A stretch of 21,607 bases of DNA, from positions 1-21,607 of IMG/VR virus record IMGVR_UViG_3300029622_000040, one strand, 5' to 3'. The translations under genes were made by a program, and so were the position numbers. Source of the stretch: a virus. Position 1 is the first letter of the stretch; each line of letters opens with the position of its first letter. Below the pieces are notes generated by a model. That model ran no database searches. It was not told where the DNA came from and saw only the letters and a list, made by a program, of their open reading frames with translations. This document shows positions 1 through 21,607 of this stretch, one piece after another.

Positions 1-99
1 GGAAAGAGCAAAGTAAACATTGATGATTTGTTTGTGGTTGAATGAAAAAAAGCTTTTTTATTGACACCATGCGTAAAAAAAACAATAATAAGAAATATT
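1..99. repeat. Terminal redundancy: 99 bp identical to 21509-21607 (genome closure overlap)
   Basis: Exact match read directly from both ends of the window. It includes the last 13 nt of the final CDS, its stop codon and the structural promoter. Confidence 0.95.
61..89 (+). promoter_or_regulatory. Sigma70-like promoter for the packaging/structural operon (TTGACA-17-AATAAT)
   Basis: TTGACA at 61-66, 17-bp spacer, AATAAT at 84-89. It is preceded by the palindrome AAAAAAGCTTTTTT at 46-59 (an UP-element-like A/T tract). It lies inside the terminal repeat, so it is duplicated at 21569-21597. Confidence 0.45.
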
Positions 100-6608: not shown

Positions 6609-7568
6609 ATGGATGACGTTTTGTTAAATTATGTAATGAGAGTAACGAAAGTTGCTCCAATACCGGAGCCGAGCACAGAATATCTGCATAATGTGCTTGT
6701 TGTGGTACCGCAGAAATCGGCGGAAATTCCAAAAACTGTCGTAAAGATTAACACGGAGAGTGATTTGGCCGCAATTACTGATGTTACTGCGCCGATGATG
6801 TTAAAAACTGGCGGTTTGACGTCATTCTACGCGCTGCCTATGGCTGACTTAAACTTGTCGGCCGCAGACATTACCGGGCTTGAAGATTTGGAAGTTTTCA
6901 CAATTTTAATTGACCCGAATTTTGAAGACGCTGCGCTTGAGAATTTGAAACTGCCCAAGGGTTATCGCGGCGTTGTCGGTGGCGCTTCGAATAACGACGC
7001 GTTAGTTGAAGCGCAGAACAAAATAGAAAATCATTCGTTTTTCTATCAGAAAGCCGCCGGCCAAGGCGAAAACATGTATCAAGCATTCGGTTCACTCCTC
7101 AATAGCGCCAATACCATTTGGAGCAGCCAGCAGTATATCAGTATGGAAAATTCTGATGATATTACTTCCTACGAAACTGCCGACGCTCTTTTCACGTTGC
7201 GCGCAAACTTTGTTCTTACTTCAAAAGAATTTGGCAATAGACTGGCGTTCTTCTGTGTCGGCGGTCAGAACAATAAAGCCGTTGCTATCCATGCGCCCTA
7301 CGTATCAGAAGAAATTGTCGTAAAATTGCAGGGTGCGGCGCTTACCTGGCTTAACCTGAATAAACCAGACTACACCACCGCCGAAGCGACACTATTGCAG
7401 GATTATTTACAGGGTATTGCCGATGAGTATACCGAAACTGGACAGATTGGCGAAATCACTGTTACAGTATCGGTTGGCAGCAGCGATTTTGTAATGAACG
7501 CTGATATTACCGCGCCGTTGCCAAAAGCAACTTGGCGCCTGAACGCGGTTTTGACACAGGGAGCTTAA
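6609..7568 (+). CDS. Major tail protein, possibly a small tail sheath
   Basis: A 319-aa protein immediately upstream of the tube-sized and chaperone-sized genes and the tape-measure candidate. A P2-like baseplate downstream suggests a contractile tail. Confidence 0.35.
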   Translation: MDDVLLNYVMRVTKVAPIPEPSTEYLHNVLVVVPQKSAEIPKTVVKINTESDLAAITDVTAPMMLKTGGLTSFYALPMADLNLSAADITGLEDLEVFTILIDPNFEDAALENLKLPKGYRGVVGGASNNDALVEAQNKIENHSFFYQKAAGQGENMYQAFGSLLNSANTIWSSQQYISMENSDDITSYETADALFTLRANFVLTSKEFGNRLAFFCVGGQNNKAVAIHAPYVSEEIVVKLQGAALTWLNLNKPDYTTAEATLLQDYLQGIADEYTETGQIGEITVTVSVGSSDFVMNADITAPLPKATWRLNAVLTQGA

Positions 7569-14879: not shown

Positions 14880-15431
14880 ATGTTATCGGCTTTTTTATGG
14901 CGGGTGCGCGGTGGCCTTTTGAAAAAATACATACCAGCAAACAAAATTTGGTATGCGCTGTTTTTCGGTGTTTGTGGTTATTTCCATTTTGGAAACAGCC
15001 TTGAAAAAGCTGTCGTTGGGTTTATTTGCTGCTATGCAAGTTATCAGCTGTATGGCTGGGGATTGTATATCGGCCGGCTGCTGGATGGTGGCAAGCTTAA
15101 CCCTAACCTTGTCCAGTATCGTGAATGTGAATTGATTGATGACTTACTTTATCCGCTGCACGTTACGATAAAAGGGAAAAAAATCTATTTGTACAATTAC
15201 CCGAAATGGTTCGGATTTTGCGGGGTAACGCTGACCGGCCTGATTATTACTTTTTTATGGGGGTTATATTTTGGCAGCTTGTCAATGATGATTGCAGGGC
15301 TTGCTATGGGCGTTTGTTATTGGATTGGGGGCTTGCTTGAAAAACTCTATCCCTTGGGAAAAGCCGGCTGGAATTGGGGCGAGTGGATTTTTGGAGAATA
15401 TTTAGGGGTTTGGCTGGCGTGCATAGTTTAA
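14880..15431 (+). CDS. Polytopic membrane protein (about 4 transmembrane segments). Candidate holin, superinfection exclusion protein or envelope-modifying protein
   Basis: GGAGGT ribosome binding site 5 nt upstream. Four hydrophobic segments rich in W/Y/G. It sits immediately upstream of the lysis promoter. Confidence 0.4.
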   Translation: MLSAFLWRVRGGLLKKYIPANKIWYALFFGVCGYFHFGNSLEKAVVGFICCYASYQLYGWGLYIGRLLDGGKLNPNLVQYRECELIDDLLYPLHVTIKGKKIYLYNYPKWFGFCGVTLTGLIITFLWGLYFGSLSMMIAGLAMGVCYWIGGLLEKLYPLGKAGWNWGEWIFGEYLGVWLACIV

Positions 15432-15451
15432 AAATCGCAATCATCTTTTTA

Positions 15452-15480
15452 TTGATTTTCATTTTGGAAATTTTTATAAT
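15452..15480 (+). promoter_or_regulatory. Promoter TTGATT-17-TATAAT upstream of the endolysin
   Basis: Perfect -10 TATAAT at 15475-15480 with a 17-bp spacer from TTGATT at 15452-15457. Confidence 0.45.
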
Positions 15481-15509
15481 ATTTGTAGAAATTTCAGAAA
15501 GGGTATGAC

Positions 15510-15935
15510 ATGTATCGGTCAAAAGATGTTGATATTCTTGCACGGACGATTTACGGCGAGGCGCGAGGCGAAGCGGAAATCGGCAAGCGAGCAGTGGCGT
15601 CCGTAATTCTAAATCGTTACAAGTCAGGAAAATGGTTCGCAGGCAACACCATCGCCGAAACCTGCCAGTTTTGTGTGAAAGGTTCGAAATACCACCAATT
15701 TTCATGCTGGAACGAAGACGACCCCAATTTTGACTTAATTAACAGAATTTCAGAAAGTGACAAAGTTTTTTGCGAATGTATAGACGTCGCGGAAAAGTAT
15801 GTCGCTGGTGTTTACAAAGATATTGTCTGCGGCGCCTGTCATTATTGTGTCGACGGCACTCATCCGGCTTGGGCAAAAGGGCGAAATCCTGATTTGCAAA
15901 TCGGCCGGCACCTTTTCTATTGCGGTGTAGAATGA
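15510..15935 (+). CDS. Endolysin, SleB/CwlJ-type cell wall hydrolase (Hydrolase_2 family)
   Basis: Family signature motifs ARTIYGEARGE and AVASVILNR. No signal peptide or signal-arrest-release (SAR) domain, so export would be holin-dependent. Confidence 0.8.
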   Translation: MYRSKDVDILARTIYGEARGEAEIGKRAVASVILNRYKSGKWFAGNTIAETCQFCVKGSKYHQFSCWNEDDPNFDLINRISESDKVFCECIDVAEKYVAGVYKDIVCGACHYCVDGTHPAWAKGRNPDLQIGRHLFYCGVE

Positions 15936-16060
15936 AAATCAGTAAAAAAAGAGCGTGGCAAATTGTACTGTTTATTTTGGCTGTGGCTGGAATTTTAGTC
16001 GCAAATGGACAATATGACGCTGCTGTTAAATTGTTTATCGGAGTTCTGGGATGGCTTTAA
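15932..16060 (+). CDS. 42-aa membrane protein (MKISKKRAWQIVLFILAVAGILVANGQYDAAVKLFIGVLGWL). Possible holin/antiholin-like or lysis accessory protein
   Basis: Not in the ORF track because it is under 60 aa. Its ATG overlaps the endolysin stop (ATGA at 15932-15935). It has one clear transmembrane segment and ends inside the i-spanin start. Confidence 0.35.
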   Translation: MKISKKRAWQIVLFILAVAGILVANGQYDAAVKLFIGVLGWL

Positions 16061-16317
16061 AATGGGCGTTAGGCATACTTGCCGCCGGCAATATCGTTTT
16101 TTTTAATCTGTGGATGAATGAAAAAGAAAAAAGAATTGCACAGGAGGTACATTTTTCGACCGTAGAAAGCGAAAGGAAGATAAAGGATGATAAATCTGTT
16201 ATTACTCAAAAAAAAATCGCTGTGCGCCGGGAAAAATGCGCAGAGCCGCAGCCGCAAGATTGCGATTGTCTTAATTATGCTATTTCTGCTGATGTGGTTG
16301 AATGGCTGCGCAGCTAA
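16051..16317 (+). CDS. i-spanin candidate (N-terminal transmembrane segment, periplasmic helix)
   Basis: Transmembrane segment ALKWALGILAAGNIVFFNLW followed by a charged helical domain with C-terminal cysteines. Location immediately after the endolysin. Confidence 0.5.
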   Translation: MALKWALGILAAGNIVFFNLWMNEKEKRIAQEVHFSTVESERKIKDDKSVITQKKIAVRREKCAEPQPQDCDCLNYAISADVVEWLRS

Positions 16318-16408
16318 ACAGGTAAAAACAAAAAACAACTGTATTTATTCGGTTGTGACTTACGGTCAAGCGCTGGACTGCTTAAAAGAACTTCATGAAG
16401 CTCAATAA
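16187..16408 (+). CDS. o-spanin candidate (lipoprotein) in the +1 frame, overlapping the i-spanin
   Basis: Hydrophobic core IAIVLIMLFLLMWL then lipobox-like LNGC. It starts inside the i-spanin gene and extends past it (overlapped spanin architecture). AAGGAAG ribosome binding site. Caveats: the mature part is short and proline-poor, and the N-terminal region is long. Confidence 0.4.
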   Translation: MINLLLLKKKSLCAGKNAQSRSRKIAIVLIMLFLLMWLNGCAAKQVKTKNNCIYSVVTYGQALDCLKELHEAQ

Positions 16409-16436
16409 ACAAAACCCCCACCTTAAAAAAAGTGGG
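16402..16436. terminator. Bidirectional rho-independent terminator
   Basis: An 11-bp stem (AAAACCCCCAC/GTGGGGGTTTT) around a 9-nt loop, with T-runs on both strands. It lies between the convergent lysis operon and the minus-strand RHH gene. Confidence 0.75.
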
Positions 16437-16458
16437 GGTTTTGCCTGGTTAACATACT

Positions 16459-16650
16459 TTAGGAGTGACCTATATTATCGAATTTTTCAGACAAAAAGTC
16501 AAGTGTATATTTTTCACGATAAAATTGAATAAATTCAAGTAGGATAAATTCAATCAAATTGCTTCGCGTCCGATTTTCAAGCATAGCGATTGAATTTAAA
16601 GCTTCCATAGTTTGAGGTTCAACCCGTATGCAATATTGTTGTTTTGCCAT
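16459..16650 (-). CDS. Ribbon-helix-helix (Arc/CopG/MetJ-like) DNA-binding protein
   Basis: N-terminal beta-strand QYCIRVEP followed by two helices. AGGAGA 8 nt upstream of the ATG at 16650. Confidence 0.55.
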   Translation of the reverse strand: MAKQQYCIRVEPQTMEALNSIAMLENRTRSNLIEFILLEFIQFYREKYTLDFLSEKFDNIGHS

Positions 16651-16660
16651 GATATTTCTC

Positions 16661-17320
16661 CTATTTAACAACTGGGGTTAATTTTTCAACAATTTCCAAT
16701 CCCGGAATTTCCCGAACGCCGTTTCGGATGGCCGTGTTTACGGCCTTGGTATCAACCGACAGAAATTCGGCCGGAACTTTCTGAATGTCAACAATTTTGA
16801 AAGTGATATATTTGCGAAATGACGCGGCAGAATTACCAAGAGTGTTATCAATCTTGATTTCAGAATTATCAATAACAGCGTTTACTTTGCTGTCGATAGA
16901 TGAAATAATTGCGGCTTGCGTAACCTCATCATATTGCCCGGCACTTTCGCGCAAAGCCTGCAATTCATCAAGTTTGCGCAACGCTTCTTCTTCGGCCGTC
17001 TTTTGCGCGGCAGAAGCTATCAAATTGAGCTTTTCAAGCTTGAGTTCGGCATAATCGGCAATCTTCGACCGTAAAATCTTTTCAGCTTCGGTTAGAAAAT
17101 CCAGCGCATTTTTGTACTTATCAGAAATTTCTTTTAAGGACGACTTAATCGGTTTTTCTTCTTCGGCTTTCAAAGATTTTACAGTTTTGACATAGCTGTT
17201 AATATTTTTTAACATTTCGCAAGCTTTTAGGTTGTCGCCCTCGTTTGCAATTTCCGAAGCTCGGATTTTCAACAGAAATTCACGCGCTTTTATTTCAACG
17301 GGATTAATTAAATTTGACAT
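16661..17320 (-). CDS. Sipho_Gp157-like coiled-coil protein
   Basis: Long N-terminal coiled coil. The C-terminal segment FRKYITFKIVDIQKVPAEFLSVDTKAVNTAIRNGVREIPGLEI resembles the Gp157 family C-terminus (F..I.K.P...ID...iP.E......D...l..A.k.G.eIPG.el). GGAG ribosome binding site. Start at 17320 (MSNLIN). Confidence 0.45.
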   Translation of the reverse strand: MSNLINPVEIKAREFLLKIRASEIANEGDNLKACEMLKNINSYVKTVKSLKAEEEKPIKSSLKEISDKYKNALDFLTEAEKILRSKIADYAELKLEKLNLIASAAQKTAEEEALRKLDELQALRESAGQYDEVTQAAIISSIDSKVNAVIDNSEIKIDNTLGNSAASFRKYITFKIVDIQKVPAEFLSVDTKAVNTAIRNGVREIPGLEIVEKLTPVVK

Positions 17321-17355
17321 TTTTTTACTCCATAAATTGTTAATGACAAAACACA

Positions 17356-17395
17356 TATAGCACATAAATATACAATGTCAATACAATAAATATAA
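17356..17395 (-). promoter_or_regulatory. Candidate leftward promoter (TTGACA-N16-TATATG on the minus strand) for the Gp157-like/RHH operon
   Basis: The reverse complement contains TTGACATTGTATATTTATGTGCTATATG. It sits in the divergent intergenic region 17321-17466. Confidence 0.3.
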
Positions 17396-17404
17396 ATTTA
17401 GGTG

Positions 17405-17433
17405 TTGACTTTAATGAAAAAATGATTATTAAT
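17405..17433 (+). promoter_or_regulatory. Rightward early promoter (TTGACT-16/17-TATTAA) plus the conserved leader GTTAACAACAACAGGAGTA at 17440-17458
   Basis: A -35 TTGACT at 17405-17410. The leader is 19/19 identical to the one at 20174-20192. Confidence 0.4.
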
Positions 17434-17466
17434 AATCTTGTTAACAACAACAGGAGTAAAAAAATA

Positions 17467-18405
17467 ATGGAAAATGGAATTTATTTTAATCTGCCCGAAG
17501 ACGTCTATTTTGCCGAGCAGCGTTTAGATTTTACGGGAATTTCGGCATTGCTGAAAAGCCCGACGGAATATTGGTTCAGCAGCCGGCTCAATCCGCTTTT
17601 TGAAGAAAAGAAAACGCCAGCTTTTTTTGAGGGAAAAATCTACCACACTTTAATTTTAGAGCCGGATGAGTTCGCAAATAGGTATGTTGTCGAGCCTGAT
17701 AGCGTTGCTAAAATGAGCCGGAAAAGCTCGGCATATTGGGCATGGGCGCAAGGTCAAAAAAAACAAATCATCAAAGCCGACTTAGCAGAAAAAATAACAA
17801 ATTCGCTTTTGTATCTGGGGAAACCGGGACAGGTTCTTGACAGTGAAATTTTTAAGCAGGGACAGTCAGAGGTAAGCATATTATTCGAGTATCGCGGCGT
17901 CGCCTGCAAAGCCAGAATTGACTATTTGAAATCTATCCAGATGTGGGATTTAAAAACAGTCTGTGCGCAGGGTCAAAATTTTTCCGACTGGTGCAAAAAG
18001 TACTTTTTTAAATACAAAACTTTCATTCAACTCTGTTTTTATCGGGAAGCCGCGAGAGCTGCCAAGGGTTTTACAGAAAAACAGGTTTTTGGCACCCCGC
18101 CGCAGCTGGAGTTTTGGAAAGACTGGCGGGAAATCGAAGATATTTTGCCCGGTGTGGTTTTCATCAATAAAAATTGTCCGCAGGCCGAAGTAAAGTTATT
18201 CGATGATGAACATTGTCCCGATATGTACCGCCTAGCGCGCGGCCAAATCGAAAAAGGGATTGAGATATTTAAGAATTATTTAAATGAATATGGCTACAAT
18301 AAAGCTTGGTTGGAAAAAGTGGACGTCCGAAATCTGTTTTTTAAAGATGAAGATTTTCCACAGTCTTTTGCTGAATTGTTAACTATTTTAGGGGAAAATG
18401 AATGA
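17467..18405 (+). CDS. PD-(D/E)XK nuclease, RecE/exonuclease VIII-like (DUF3799-type)
   Basis: GKIYHTLILEPDEF fits the G...H....E motif. ARIDYLKSIQMWDLKT provides the D...(D/E)-x-K residues. ATG at 17467 with a CAGGAGT ribosome binding site. The track's longer N-terminus from 17422 is rejected. Confidence 0.6.
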   Translation: MENGIYFNLPEDVYFAEQRLDFTGISALLKSPTEYWFSSRLNPLFEEKKTPAFFEGKIYHTLILEPDEFANRYVVEPDSVAKMSRKSSAYWAWAQGQKKQIIKADLAEKITNSLLYLGKPGQVLDSEIFKQGQSEVSILFEYRGVACKARIDYLKSIQMWDLKTVCAQGQNFSDWCKKYFFKYKTFIQLCFYREAARAAKGFTEKQVFGTPPQLEFWKDWREIEDILPGVVFINKNCPQAEVKLFDDEHCPDMYRLARGQIEKGIEIFKNYLNEYGYNKAWLEKVDVRNLFFKDEDFPQSFAELLTILGENE

Positions 18406-18770
18406 AATCACATTTGAAGTTTATCGACAGTCTCATTTGCTTACGCTGTGGCTGCCAAAATCCAACACATCATCATCTTTTGCGCGTCCGCCCGGAATAT
18501 CTACCAAAAAAAGTGGGCGAGGAAGATTTTTTAATTCCCAAAATCAAGAGCAAAGGAATGGGAACCAAAAGCGATGACCGTTTTACCCTACCGCTTTGCT
18601 CAAAATGCCATCAGATGTTGCACATTTGCGGAAATGAACGGTATTTCTTGCGGTGTATTGGCGTTTCAGAACCTGAAGAAGTAGCCTTGTACCTTTGGAA
18701 AAACACGGGAAATCTTGAAAAATGCTTAAAAGAATTGACGGAAATAAGGATTTTGGGCGGTGGATTTTAG
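18402..18770 (+). CDS. HNH / endonuclease VII-like zinc-binding nuclease candidate
   Basis: CLRCGC...THHH then DDRFTLPLCSKCHQMLH gives the pattern Cx2C...HH...Cx2CHx3H. It overlaps the exonuclease gene stop. Confidence 0.4.
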   Translation: MKSHLKFIDSLICLRCGCQNPTHHHLLRVRPEYLPKKVGEEDFLIPKIKSKGMGTKSDDRFTLPLCSKCHQMLHICGNERYFLRCIGVSEPEEVALYLWKNTGNLEKCLKELTEIRILGGGF

Positions 18771-19158
18771 GGTTGCACGATTTGAGAGAAAAGGAGGCCG
18801 TCAAGTTTTTGTTGGCTTCCCGTCTGGCGGGTATTTTTTAGGCCAAAATGGGATACTTTACCGGGGAGACATTATTAGTAATACTACCGACAGAAGAAAA
18901 AAAGACTTTCATATAGTAGATTTTTTTTCTGGACGGTGTGACGAGGATAAACAAAAGATATATGCGCACGATGTAGTTTATTCATCTACGTTAAAAACCT
19001 CGGGAATTGTTTTATTTCGGCCGGAAAAAGGAGCTTTTATTTTTTGTGTCCAGCGCGGAAAAATTACAATACCGTATAGATTTTTAGACATGTATGAAGT
19101 TTCTTTGAAAAAAAAATACTCAATTTTTGAAAAAAATGTATTGACAAGTAATCCATAA
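18760..19158 (+). CDS. Hypothetical protein, possibly YopX-like
   Basis: GTG start with an AAGGA ribosome binding site. KQKIYAHDVVY resembles the GkeIYEGDIv core of YopX. Its 3' end runs into the promoter repeat. Confidence 0.3.
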   Translation: MDFRVARFERKGGRQVFVGFPSGGYFLGQNGILYRGDIISNTTDRRKKDFHIVDFFSGRCDEDKQKIYAHDVVYSSTLKTSGIVLFRPEKGAFIFCVQRGKITIPYRFLDMYEVSLKKKYSIFEKNVLTSNP

Positions 19159-19169
19159 TAGATTACTAT
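19141..19169 (+). promoter_or_regulatory. Early promoter with an embedded palindromic operator, copy 1. The repeat unit spans about 19113-19200
   Basis: TTGACA at 19141-19146. AGTAATC at 19147-19153, then N7, then GATTACT at 19161-19167, a perfect inverted repeat filling the spacer. Candidate -10 TACTAT(AAC). A T/A tract lies upstream. Confidence 0.5.
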
Positions 19170-19204
19170 AACATCATAAGTTAACAAACAACAGGAGTGA
19201 GAAA

Positions 19205-19456
19205 ATGACGGATGAGATTAAAAATGGGATTGCGTTAGAAATTTACGACAGGCAACTTGAAATTCTTAAAGTTAGCAGTCATAAATATTATAACCGAGAA
19301 AGTCTCGATTATGATGTCGAAGATTATCTTTTCCAAGACCAGGAAGACGCCTTGAACGAAGCCAAGCAGGACTTCATTGAGGAAATCCGCTTAGTTTTTG
19401 GGAATGATAAAAACCCGGCATTGCTTGAGCTTGAAAGGATTGCAAACAATGTGTGA
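19205..19456 (+). CDS. Small acidic protein (83 aa, D/E-rich)
   Basis: Perfect leader plus GGAGTGA ribosome binding site. High net negative charge. Confidence 0.45.
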   Translation: MTDEIKNGIALEIYDRQLEILKVSSHKYYNRESLDYDVEDYLFQDQEDALNEAKQDFIEEIRLVFGNDKNPALLELERIANNV

Positions 19457-19610
19457 GAAAAAAAGAACACGTCAGGAAATTACGCGAGAGGCTCAGCGAA
19501 AATATCGCGAGCGTCTGAAAAAAAAAGGAAAACGCGGCCGCCTCATTTATTTGACAAATGAGGAGTACGAGGAAGTCAAAAGATTTATCAAGGATTTGAG
19601 AAATGATTGA
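19449..19610 (+). CDS. Small basic protein, possibly DNA-binding (TREAQRKYRERLKKKGKRGR)
   Basis: Its ATG at 19449 overlaps the upstream stop. Basic region followed by a helical tail. The TTG 19398 start given in the track is less parsimonious. Confidence 0.35.
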   Translation: MCEKKRTRQEITREAQRKYRERLKKKGKRGRLIYLTNEEYEEVKRFIKDLRND

Positions 19611-19701
19611 GAATTTTTTTTATTGGTTTTGCGGATTTTTCGCAACATTCGCACCCCTTTATTTTTTAATTCAATATCTTAGATGAAAAGGAAAAAAAAC
19701 A

Positions 19702-20124
19702 ATGATTGAGAACAAAGAACAATTTAAAGAGTTTCGCGTAAACAACGGTTATACTCAAAAGGAGTTTGCCGCAGCGCTGGGCTTTAGCGAGGATTATATT
19801 TCAGCAATTGAGCGCGGCACTCGGCCATTAACCGAATGTATTTGCGCAAAAGTAGAAAATCTAAGACGGCCGACGGCAACTCTGAAAGTTGTCATCGATG
19901 AGGCTGATGAAAAAAACAAAAGGGTTGCGGCCGAAGAATTGAAAACTTATGGCGATGAATATATTGATTGCATGGAAAAAATCGAAGAAGCACGACTGAC
20001 GATGAAAGATATTATCGACAGCGCCAAGGAAAAAGGAATCTCAAAAGACATGATAATCGCCTATTGCACCACAAAAACTTTGACCGAGTTCAATAAAAAA
20101 ATTATAAAAAGTGCAATTTTTTGA
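19702..20124 (+). CDS. XRE-family helix-turn-helix transcriptional regulator
   Basis: HTH YTQKEFAAALGFSEDYISAIERGTRPLT. AAAAGGA ribosome binding site. It is flanked by the two promoter-operator repeats. Confidence 0.7.
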   Translation: MIENKEQFKEFRVNNGYTQKEFAAALGFSEDYISAIERGTRPLTECICAKVENLRRPTATLKVVIDEADEKNKRVAAEELKTYGDEYIDCMEKIEEARLTMKDIIDSAKEKGISKDMIIAYCTTKTLTEFNKKIIKSAIF

Positions 20125-20134
20125 AAAAAATGAG

Positions 20135-20166
20135 TTGACAAGTAATCCATAATAGATTACTATAAT
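20135..20166 (+). promoter_or_regulatory. Early promoter with an embedded palindromic operator, copy 2. The repeat unit spans about 20113-20195
   Basis: TTGACA at 20135-20140. AGTAATC at 20141-20147, N7, GATTACT at 20155-20161. TACTATAAT at 20158-20166. About 93% identical to copy 1 across roughly 85 bp. Confidence 0.5.
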
Positions 20167-20198
20167 ATCATAAGTTAACAACAACAGGAGTAAGTAAG

Positions 20199-20390
20199 AT
20201 GAAAAACATTGACGCAATCGATTTCGAAATCATGGTTGAGAAAGCTTTGAATACAGGTAAAAGCTCATTGAGTTTCCAAATTTATGGATACGATAACGAA
20301 TGGGTTCGCAATATGGTTGACGGCTTGCCGGAATGCCTGCGCGAAGCTATTGATGATGTCGACGGCGCTGAAATTAATTTTAAGGATTAA
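20199..20390 (+). CDS. Small acidic hypothetical protein (63 aa)
   Basis: Conserved leader plus GGAGTAAG ribosome binding site. Confidence 0.4.
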   Translation: MKNIDAIDFEIMVEKALNTGKSSLSFQIYGYDNEWVRNMVDGLPECLREAIDDVDGAEINFKD

Positions 20391-20796: not shown

Positions 20797-21216
20797 ATGA
20801 AAATTAAGGATATGAGCTTAACGGATGACTGGAAAGCTGGAAAATTAAAAGCAGGGACGTATTATGTCAAGCTATCAAACGGGCGTGTAGATGTCGCCAA
20901 GCTAAGTAAATTTAATAGGTTTTATGCGATATGTTACACGTTTGAAGTTGTCGAAGTTATAGCGCCGTGCAGTTACGACCATTTTGTTGAACTTACCGAA
21001 AAGGTCAAAGGACTTGAAAACAAACAGCTCCGCCAGTTGCTGAAAGAGTGCAAAGAATATTTATCAGACGTTGATACATATTTCACTAAAATAGAAGAAC
21101 AGCAATTCGAAATTAAACAACTAAAACAAAGAATCGAATTTGCGAAACAAGCCGTTGATTTGTTTTTCAAAACAGAAGATGAGAGTAAACTTTTGGAGAT
21201 TGCAGAATGGGAATGA
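20797..21216 (+). CDS. Hypothetical protein with a C-terminal coiled coil (KIEEQQFEIKQLKQRIEFAKQA)
   Basis: Ribosome binding site TAGGATGA. It shares a motif with the next gene. Confidence 0.4.
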   Translation: MKIKDMSLTDDWKAGKLKAGTYYVKLSNGRVDVAKLSKFNRFYAICYTFEVVEVIAPCSYDHFVELTEKVKGLENKQLRQLLKECKEYLSDVDTYFTKIEEQQFEIKQLKQRIEFAKQAVDLFFKTEDESKLLEIAEWE

Positions 21217-21524
21217 AAAGTTTGATGTGTGAAATCTTATGTGATGAACAGAAAGAAATTATAAAAAGTCTTGAAATCCTGATAAAAAGTAAGAATAAAA
21301 CTATTTTAGAAAAAAGTAAAAGAGCTAATGAAATGTTTAAGCTTTCTTATAACAGAAAATTAAAGATAGAAGAACAGCAAGCAGAGATTGATCGGCTTAG
21401 AGAAGCTATTCGGTTAGCCCGAGATACAGCATATCAATCGACGCAAGATTGCCCTCGGTGTGGTTTTATTGATGATTTGTTAACCAAGACCTTAAACGAA
21501 GAAAGTGAGGAAAGAGCAAAGTAA
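21207..21524 (+). CDS. Hypothetical coiled-coil protein with a C-terminal CPRCG motif. Its last 16 nt lie in the terminal redundancy
   Basis: KIEEQQAEIDRLREAIRLARD is paralogous to the motif in the upstream gene. The stop codon is at 21522-21524. Confidence 0.4.
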   Translation: MGMKSLMCEILCDEQKEIIKSLEILIKSKNKTILEKSKRANEMFKLSYNRKLKIEEQQAEIDRLREAIRLARDTAYQSTQDCPRCGFIDDLLTKTLNEESEERAK

Positions 21525-21607
21525 ACATTGATGATTTGTTTGTGGTTGAATGAAAAAAAGCTTTTTTATTGACACCATGCGTAAAAAAAACAATAATAAG
21601 AAATATT
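21509..21607. repeat. Second copy of the 99-bp terminal redundancy
   Basis: Identical to 1-99. Confidence 0.95.

Follow-up and report, generated by a model that had tools for sequence, protein, structure and literature searches.

A duplicated promoter and leader cassette brackets the XRE regulator block

The stretch of viral DNA analysed here, 21,607 nucleotides long and referred to in full as the window (IMG/VR virus record IMGVR_UViG_3300029622_000040, positions 1 to 21,607), contains two near-identical copies of a promoter and leader cassette, P1 and P2, that lie on either side of a small block of genes including one for an XRE-family regulator. In the explanation that we favour, to which we assign a probability of roughly 0.65, P1 and P2 are a duplicated early promoter-leader cassette whose copies convert one another, which lies at junctions between gene modules and which carries, in the clade of the window, a dyad that may act as an operator. 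An earlier reading of the window (the original prediction) had proposed a cassette of ~85 bp present in two ~93% identical copies. This is borne out by gapped local alignment, in which 19121-19208 and 20114-20202 are identical at 82 of 87 aligned bases with three 1-nt indels, and the individual elements are located where they had been predicted. The ungapped core of the repeat spans 64 nt (19124-19187 versus 20118-20181) and is 95% identical. The duplication is far above chance level.

Both copies are oriented on the plus strand and consist of the same set of elements. Copy P1 (19121-19204) comprises an A/T tract, a -35 element (TTGACA, 19141-19146), a dyad (AGTAATC-CATAATA-GATTACT, 19147-19167), a -10 element (TACTAT, 19164-19169, at 17-bp spacing) and a leader (GTTAACAAACAACAGGAGT, 19180-19198, with the Shine-Dalgarno (SD) sequence AGGAG at 19193-19197) and extends to the ATG of p83. 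Copy P2 (20114-20198) extends to the ATG of p63, with TTGACA at 20135-20140, a dyad of the same sequence at 20141-20161, TACTAT at 20158-20163, again at 17-bp spacing, and the leader GTTAACAACAACAGGAGTAA at 20174-20193, its SD sequence lying at 20186-20190. Exact matches to the dyad, AGTAATCCATAATAGATTACT, occur in the window only at these two places. The dyad begins directly after the -35 element, fills the spacer and overlaps the first four bases of the -10 element. The leader has the form GTTAACAA(A)CAACAGGAGT in both copies, with AGGAGT as the SD region, and is followed by the ATG. Upstream genes enter each cassette: the 3' end of open reading frame (ORF) p132 runs through P1, with its TAA stop codon (19156-19158) inside the loop of the dyad, and the TGA stop codon of the XRE gene (20122-20124) is located in the A/T tract of P2. 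Between the copies lie p83, p53, a micro-ORF of 27 codons and the XRE gene.

In a scan for sigma-70 promoters, TTGACA-17-TACTAT scores 10/12. Overlapping hexamers are present at 20-bp spacing, TATAAC in P1 (19167-19172) and the consensus TATAAT in P2 (20161-20166), and it was these that the original prediction had taken as the -10 element; they do exist, but they are located 20 bp after the -35 element, and TACTAT is the hexamer that is both spaced at 17 bp and conserved across clades. An A/T palindrome, ATTTTTTGAAAAAAAT, was also observed at 20116-20131, just upstream of the P2 -35 in the position of an UP element, with an imperfect counterpart at 19123-19137; it may bear a loose resemblance to a CodY box.

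The promoter is conserved across three clades

We compared the promoter between the clade of the window (clade A), a sister clade in which the XRE protein is ~60% identical (clade B, loci L012-L025) and Dulem virus 29, using 13 promoter copies in an ungapped alignment. Homologous promoters occupy equivalent places in clade B and Dulem virus 29, and these align without gaps from the -35 element to the +1 region. The clade-B promoter reads TTGACA-agttatccgacttatat-TATATT-actagta-TAAGTTAAC and that of Dulem virus 29 reads TTGACA-agttatttagttgggga-TATTAT-actagta-TAGTTAAA. The invariant columns comprise TTGACA (kept in 12 of the 13 aligned copies; the P1 -35 of clade-A genome L011 reads TTGGCA), AGTnAT, the T, A and final T of the -10 element at 17 bp, TAAGTTAA and AGGAGT. 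At 17-bp spacing the -10 hexamer is TACTAT, TATATT or TATTAT, according to the clade, with the T, A and final T unchanged. Since the -35, the TA...T at 17 bp, the +1 region and the SD sequence are all invariant, this is the footprint expected of a sigma-70-type promoter followed by a start region and a ribosome-binding site. Identification of the cassette as a duplicated sigma-70/sigma-A-type promoter plus leader, as originally predicted, is thus well supported by comparative sequence evidence. A search of related phages for the same cassette, which had been suggested as a check, gave a divided answer, with the promoter found in clade B and Dulem virus 29 and the dyad absent from both.

Gene conversion between the copies and breakpoints at their 3' ends

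Variants typical of one cassette copy were found in the other. In clade A, P2 of L035, L041 and L040 contains the P1-type variants TGTA, TATAAC and CAAAC, and L040 is reciprocal in that its P1 also holds the P2-type AACAAC, while P2 of L011 has the P1-type TGTA only. The duplicated unit of clade B is about 265-269 bp long and consists of the promoter and a gene of 60 codons. Over a 213-nt core, the paralogues within a genome differ at 0 (L014), 4 (L012), 6 (L017, L020), 7 (L022), 11 (L019) or 19 (L024) positions, compared with a median of 10-15 between orthologues, and certain variants are confined to a single genome, where both copies carry them. A global test for concerted evolution over the whole unit of ~269 nt showed that orthologues are nearest neighbours, which rules out a recent separate duplication in each genome. 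Conversion within the 213-nt core, but with orthologues nearest over the whole unit, implies that the duplication predates the diversification of clade B and has been patchily homogenised by gene conversion. Judged from these shared variant tracts, P1 and P2 undergo gene conversion in both clades.

The cassettes also coincide with breaks in homology between the clades. Collinear homology between the window and clade B extends from 14886 to 19198, where it ends at the SD sequence of P1 and clade B continues with an extra gene, p60. It resumes at 19242, continues through the XRE gene and P2 and ends at 20206. The place of p63, which lacks a counterpart in clade B, is taken there by p60b and p144. 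On this comparison, the breaks in inter-clade homology coincide exactly with the 3' ends of the two cassettes, and the cassettes mark module junctions. The region downstream of P2, p63 and p121 (window 20797-21524, compared in L033-L042) is hyperplastic, with varying small ORFs, a DNA methylase gene in L037 and a gene for a 485-aa glycosyltransferase in L040.

The original prediction had also suggested that homologous recombination between the direct repeats could delete or duplicate the intervening block. The repeats do behave as recombination sites in so far as conversion tracts occur in both clades, but no deletion or duplication of the block between P1 and P2 was found among the p63 contexts that we read, which were drawn from the 24 longest contigs carrying p63, and this tells against the wider recombinational role of the repeats.

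The dyad is a clade-specific candidate operator

The symmetry of the dyad overlaps the core promoter as would be expected of an operator, abutting the -35 element and covering four bases of the -10 element. When the 49-nt promoter was folded as DNA, the window z was -2.84 and only 3 of 200 shuffles folded as well, which makes the dyad unusual in its local context. Compared with clade B, four substitutions (at spacer positions 4, 15, 20 and 21) each make a Watson-Crick pair, which raises the pairing from 3/7 to 7/7, and one of these pair-making substitutions moves the -10 element off consensus, from TATATT to TACTAT (a match of 5/6 becoming 4/6). The dyad arms GATTACT and AGTAATC are, in addition, one base away from the halves GATTATT and AATAATC of GATTATTAATAATC, a 14-bp perfect palindrome that is present in two copies (594-607 and 17424-17437) with unrelated flanks. 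The heptad GATTAYT/ARTAATC occurs 17 times versus 7.6 +/- 3.0 expected, with 8 of the 17 occurrences in four regulatory palindromes; the dyads have only this 7-bp half-site in common with the independent palindromes at 594 and 17424. The P1 and P2 dyads are mutually paralogous, and their presence in both copies is therefore to be counted as a single event. It is unchanged in ~40 copies from ~21 clade-A genomes.

A number of findings weigh against an operator function. The 7-N7-7 dyad is missing in clade B and Dulem virus 29, where only 3/7 and 2/7 positions pair, respectively, and neither relative shows the conservation or co-variation with the regulator that an operator should display. In clade B, spacer positions 8-17 form the most variable part of the cassette, with four haplotypes, two of which coexist within the single genome L024. 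The DNA-reading parts of the candidate regulators, namely the recognition helix of the XRE protein (SEDYIS[A/K]IER) and the beta-strand (QYCIR[V/L]) of a minus-strand ribbon-helix-helix (RHH) protein, are nearly identical in the two clades. Clade-A genome L011 (Logan ERR14024053), which has lost residues 1-70 of the XRE protein and with them its helix-turn-helix (HTH) domain, keeps both dyads. Moreover, diversity in clade A is only ~5%, so that zero variants in 42 dyad positions have a P of ~0.12, and perfect inverted repeats with 7-bp arms and loops of 0-15 nt number 47 in the genome versus 35 +/- 8 in random genomes.

Structure formation by the cassette was considered at the levels of both DNA and RNA. 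The clade-B haplotypes and the promoters of Dulem virus 29 fold no better than shuffles as DNA (z -1.2 to +0.4), so a stem over the -10 element common to the whole family was rejected. As RNA, the dyad would form an A/U-rich hairpin of -5.5 kcal/mol that is followed by no U-run (z -0.6 to -0.7 versus shuffles), and a riboregulator or terminator reading was rejected since the cassette and leader RNA also folds no better than shuffles.

Taken as a whole, we see an even chance that the dyad is a clade-specific operator at which a small phage-encoded dimeric repressor would block RNA polymerase. The operator role proposed in the original prediction is favoured by the local oddity of the dyad, the pair-creating changes and the shared half-site; on the other side stands its absence from the only available relatives that keep the promoter, an observation which that prediction had itself named as arguing against such a role.

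Alternative explanations for the dyad and the repeats

The findings against an operator would be accounted for if the dyad had no function of its own and were a chance spacer haplotype, copied by duplication or conversion and seemingly conserved as clade A is young. This is a serious contender, although we place it somewhat short of an even chance. The hypervariable clade-B spacer fits it well, particularly as the four haplotypes do not track variants of the XRE HTH, and the same is true of inverted repeats that are at chance level genome-wide, of an invariance in clade A that could be fortuitous, and of regulators whose DNA-reading residues are conserved where the dyad is not, with the dyads of L011 persisting when the XRE HTH is lost. 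It is less comfortable with four lineage-specific substitutions that are all complementary, a coincidence of ~(1/3)^4 or ~0.01 given that those sites changed, especially as one of them weakens the -10 element. Nor does it readily explain the local fold, or a half-site that recurs in two independent 14-bp perfect palindromes at regulatory sites and belongs to an enriched heptad. A more specific proposal, that an XRE dimer is the repressor at both dyads, autoregulating P1 and repressing P2, appears unlikely. The protein has a clear HTH_3 domain, its nearest solved relatives (restriction-modification (R-M) controller proteins, SinR and ImmR) are dimeric operator binders, helices that follow the HTH in the AlphaFold2 (AF2) model could mediate oligomerisation, and its gene sits between the two dyads; the clades also differ in and beside this protein's recognition helix, with A35, G39 and T40 in clade A corresponding to K, N and E in clade B. 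Against this, most of the recognition helix is invariant across clades and the dyad is not, L011 deletes residues 1-70 and keeps both dyads, L012 of clade B has a 1-nt XRE frameshift (for which sequencing error is possible) and a fold search with the full-length model was uninformative.

We consider it very improbable that the dyad forms a hairpin that terminates or attenuates read-through and so insulates the operons, in the manner of the promoter-early stem-loop (PeSL) cassettes of T4-type phages (Arbiol et al., 2010, PMC2839356; Comeau et al., 2014, PMC4122927). The geometry does fit the commonest PeSL subclass, in which the stem lies between -35 and -10 or over -10, and the upstream genes enter the cassette without another terminator; the weak A/U-rich RNA hairpin lacking a U-run described above, which was not called by a terminator scan and has no Rfam match, and the shuffle-like stems of the relatives speak against it. 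We give hardly any credence to an activated promoter in which TATAAT/TATAAC is the true -10 element, so that a 20-bp overlong spacer would require a DNA-twisting activator. Consensus hexamers combined with an overlong spacer that holds a dyad are the classic geometry of MerR-type promoters, and P2 has TTGACA-N20-TATAAT, in which both hexamers match the consensus and the spacer contains the dyad. But P1 has TATAAC, the clade-B hexamer at 20 bp is ATTACT, TA...T at 17 bp is invariant in all clades, and no MerR-family protein was found among the scanned ORFs. The repeats might instead be the ends of a mobile or excisable unit, either a 994-bp mini-circle with the regulator genes or the target of a site-specific recombinase, which we again consider very improbable. 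Direct repeats do bracket a self-contained module of promoter and regulators, PeSL mini-circles offer a precedent, and many Logan contigs of ~1.0 kb, such as L010, begin and end inside the repeats. A de Bruijn assembler, however, makes contigs of ~1 kb at any repeat longer than k, so these are no evidence for circles. The block is at a constant place in all genomes, with no deletion variant among the contexts read, and the mobile-element reading was rejected as the block and its surroundings encode neither a recombinase nor a transposase.

A model for the duplicated cassette

Returning to the duplicated promoter-leader cassette as our preferred explanation, and building on the observed repeat, promoter conservation, conversion tracts and breakpoints, we infer where transcription would start, how the two operons would be co-regulated, how the dyad might act and what might bind it. 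The two copies are paralogues of one putative early promoter, of the host sigma-70/sigma-A type, joined to a brief 5' leader that lacks structure and bears a strong SD sequence; host RNA polymerase would start transcription a few bases upstream of GTTAAC. P1 would transcribe p83, p53, the micro-ORF and the XRE gene, and P2 would transcribe p63, p121 and variable accessory genes; because the cassette copies are alike, both operons should receive equal strength and control. The promoter is likely to be ancestral to the phage family, and its duplication around the regulator block is common to the sister clade. Recurrent gene conversion keeps the copies alike, the phage encoding its own exonuclease and probably a recombination module, and the 3' edge of the cassette serves as a junction for insertion or replacement of genes between lineages. 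The dyad is a clade-specific addition over the spacer and -10 element, and since P1 drives two putative DNA-binding proteins, an operator at this position would provide negative feedback. The binder may be of RHH type (p53 or the Arc-like protein) or the XRE protein, and may read the heptad GATTAYT that is also found in the palindromes at the exonuclease promoter and upstream of terL.

An extended version of this scheme is a long shot. One small repressor, possibly RHH-like, would read GATTAYT in two geometries and so time the whole early programme: in front of terL and at the exonuclease promoter the heptads are head-to-head, and in P1 and P2 they are tail-to-tail and separated by 7 bp. P1 and P2 would have been recruited recently in clade A by four point changes, and the identical cassettes could allow the regulator block (p83, p53 and XRE) to excise as a 994-bp circle and to travel from phage to phage as a control module.

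Overall, this is an ordinary but tidy regulatory duplication. The scheme would provide a concrete, conservation-supported transcription map for a widespread uncultured human-gut phage of ~21.5 kb, with at least four early promoters of one design, and its payoff is modest, amounting to defined promoter and operator candidates and three candidate regulators. It would also extend the PeSL principle, that repeated promoter cassettes are both regulatory units and homology patches for conversion and module exchange, well outside the T4-type phages. At a practical level, the repeats cause assemblies of this phage to fragment or collapse.

Comparison with known systems

PeSL cassettes have a characteristic order, in which an upstream stop codon in an AT-rich tract is followed by a sigma-70 promoter, a stem-loop mostly between -35 and -10 or over -10, an SD sequence and an ATG (PMC2839356); ~100 bp are conserved, and recombination between copies shuffles the flanking genes (PMC2839356; PMC4122927). 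The cassette described here has its elements in the same order, including an upstream stop codon within the cassette (that of p132 or XRE), and its dyad, with a 7-bp stem and a 7-nt loop, spans the spacer and -10 element. The conserved stretch of ~85-100 bp is comparable, the copies flank non-core or ORFan genes, and recombination has taken place between them, with indels and replacements at the cassette borders (19198 and 20206). The differences limit the likeness and count against a PeSL-like role: this non-T4 phage of 21.5 kb has two full copies and two or three that consist of the leader only, as opposed to ~50 per T4-type genome, where they are concentrated in hyperplastic regions, and the stem is A/T-rich and weak and forms no terminator, whereas PeSL cassettes have a stable stem, often rich in G/C, that serves as a terminator or attenuator. 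Mini-circles have been demonstrated for PeSL only, and the present cassette brackets regulator genes rather than ORFans alone. Since neither the stable terminator stem nor the many copies of T4-type phages are found, we do not class the cassette as a PeSL, although by analogy it resembles one in the way it would work.

Comparison with phage operators concerns the dyad itself, which has a length of ~21 bp and lies over the spacer and -10 element of an early promoter, at two promoters and with small HTH and RHH genes nearby. Operators over core promoters are known for phage repressors, as in OR and OL of lambda, 434 and P22, and the operator of P22 Arc is located between the -35 and -10 elements of Pant. 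Unlike these, the present dyad is a candidate site that is not kept in relatives that have the promoter and the regulators, and its two sites arose as paralogues of each other, not as operators maintained independently. The omega protein of plasmid pSM19035 is an RHH repressor that reads 7-bp repeats in direct or inverted orientation. It offers a lead only, in that GATTAYT is found both head-to-head, in the palindrome with halves GATTATT and AATAATC, and tail-to-tail, in AGTAATC-N7-GATTACT, and the genome has genes for two RHH-like proteins. In sequence the candidate heptad bears no relation to the one read by omega, and its enrichment is modest.

Related leaders and other regulatory sites

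The leader is not confined to P1 and P2. The leader of the exonuclease gene (17440-17459) is identical to the P2 leader (20174-20193) at 20/20 positions, confirming a third copy that the original prediction had placed at 17440-17458 and that is thus slightly longer. Another copy, inverted and 80% identical, is located at 17319-17343 and serves a divergent minus-strand operon. The leader is therefore a general early-operon leader in this phage, located at four or five operon starts, and is not peculiar to the duplication. The same promoter design is seen at the starts of the exonuclease, minus-strand and terS-like operons. The exonuclease promoter and leader (17405-17466, plus strand) consist of TTGACT (17405-17410), the palindrome GATTATTAATAATC over the -10 region (17424-17437) and the leader; the second copy of GATTATTAATAATC (594-607) is located 14 nt upstream of the ATG of the terminase large-subunit gene (terL). 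In clade B, GATTATTAATTATC is present at the exonuclease promoter and there is no palindrome before terL.

Further observations were made at these and neighbouring sites. The segments 17319-17343 and 17441-17465 are mutually inverted leaders of 25 nt with 80% complementarity, both having TTAACAA...GGAGTAAAAAAAT before the ATG. TTAACAA/TTGTTAA occurs 20 times in the whole window versus 7.4 +/- 2.6 expected and is found near five operon starts (107, 17337, 17441, 19181 and 20175). The promoter of the terS-like gene (window 38-97) has TTGACA-17-AATAAT at 61-89, with the palindrome AAAAAAGCTTTTTT upstream; at the equivalent position in clade B (L014, ~6760-6843), a G/C-rich hairpin and T-run abut TTGACA, giving a terminator-promoter composite. 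In the window, a G/C-rich hairpin, AACCCCCAC..GTGGGGGTT at 16413-16440, separates the convergent plus-strand lysis genes from the minus-strand RHH operon and is probably a bidirectional terminator. Rfam gave no match in 19100-20200 and only sub-threshold matches elsewhere, on the terminator at 16404-16535.

Genes of the block and candidate DNA-binding proteins

The first gene of the P1 operon, p83 (19205-19456, plus strand), encodes an acidic protein without a family match. It is followed by p53 (19449-19610, plus strand), which encodes a small basic protein and candidate DNA binder whose match to NF041430 'plasmid repression protein F' is weak (E 1.1e-6) and falls short of the curated cut-off; a literature search on 'plasmid repression protein F' found nothing. 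The micro-ORF between p53 and the XRE gene (19603-19686) is unannotated and encodes 27 codons of hydrophobic sequence (MIENFFYWFCGFFATFAPLYFLIQYLR), with the clade-B counterpart MLENFFYWFCGF[VA]C[TA]FMPLYFIIQFLR. Given this conservation, its product is probably a genuine small membrane peptide. The XRE-family protein (19702-20124, plus strand) has an N-terminal HTH_3 domain (E 4.5e-9) resembling those of the R-M controller proteins (C-proteins), SinR and ImmR, and its AF2 model (pLDDT 80) consists of the HTH followed by long helices at residues 43-110; a fold search of the PDB with this full-length model returned no informative match. In the P2 operon, p63 (20199-20390, plus strand) is an ORFan confined to clade A, p60b taking its place in clade B, and is followed by p121, which is DUF1566/Lcl_C-like. 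The Arc/CopG-like RHH protein (16459-16650, minus strand; 63 aa from MAKQQY) matches phrog_3431 weakly (E 9e-4), and its homologue in Dulem virus 29 is annotated as CopG-like. PHROG scans of ten further ORFs gave no matches.

The XRE and RHH proteins had been put forward originally as the obvious binders of the palindrome. Both stay candidates, but the XRE protein is not clearly the binder given that L011 keeps its dyads without the XRE HTH, and the proteins that may bind the dyad are the XRE protein, p53 and the RHH protein. The deletion in L011 corresponds to window 19699-19908 and lies between GAAAAAAACAA microhomologies. In L012 and L013 of clade B, the XRE gene is frameshifted by a 1-nt deletion in an A-run at codon ~8; either the regulator has really been lost or the homopolymer was misread in sequencing.

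The phage genome and its relatives

Bases 1-99 of the window are an exact repeat of 21509-21607, indicating that the window is a complete assembly, circularly permuted or circularly closed, with a unit genome of 21,508 bp and a G+C content of ~41%. Contigs of ~21.5 kb that are near-identical to the window are present in many human-gut metagenomes. The TTGACA/TAnnnT promoters and strong AGGAG ribosome-binding sites point to a host with classical sigma-A promoters, probably a member of the Bacillota. Searches of 185,579 reference bacterial and archaeal genomes with the XRE profile and TerL retrieved no relative, and since these were without a match we see no prophage and no sign of lysogeny. In IMG/VR, neither the exact clade-A promoter-plus-dyad pattern nor an XRE protein search found a match or a relative, respectively, and a looser promoter pattern retrieved one clade-B genome, L024. 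A scan of JGI metagenomes added one clade-B genome, together with distant relatives of the C-terminal domain that lack the promoter. Two 60,419-bp ENA contigs (L017 and L018) contain a clade-B genome fused to a second phage-like region with integrase, lysozyme and baseplate genes, and these joined contigs may result from chimeric assembly or represent a composite element. Among annotated records, the closest is that of Dulem virus 29 (PP511380.1, locus L001), an unclassified caudovirus from lemur faeces with a circular genome of 23.5 kb that is syntenic with the window at an identity of only ~65%. Its tail-fibre region contains an 84-nt inverted repeat (13475-13558/14052-14135), 100% complementary and with 493 nt between the arms, that could mark an invertible segment.

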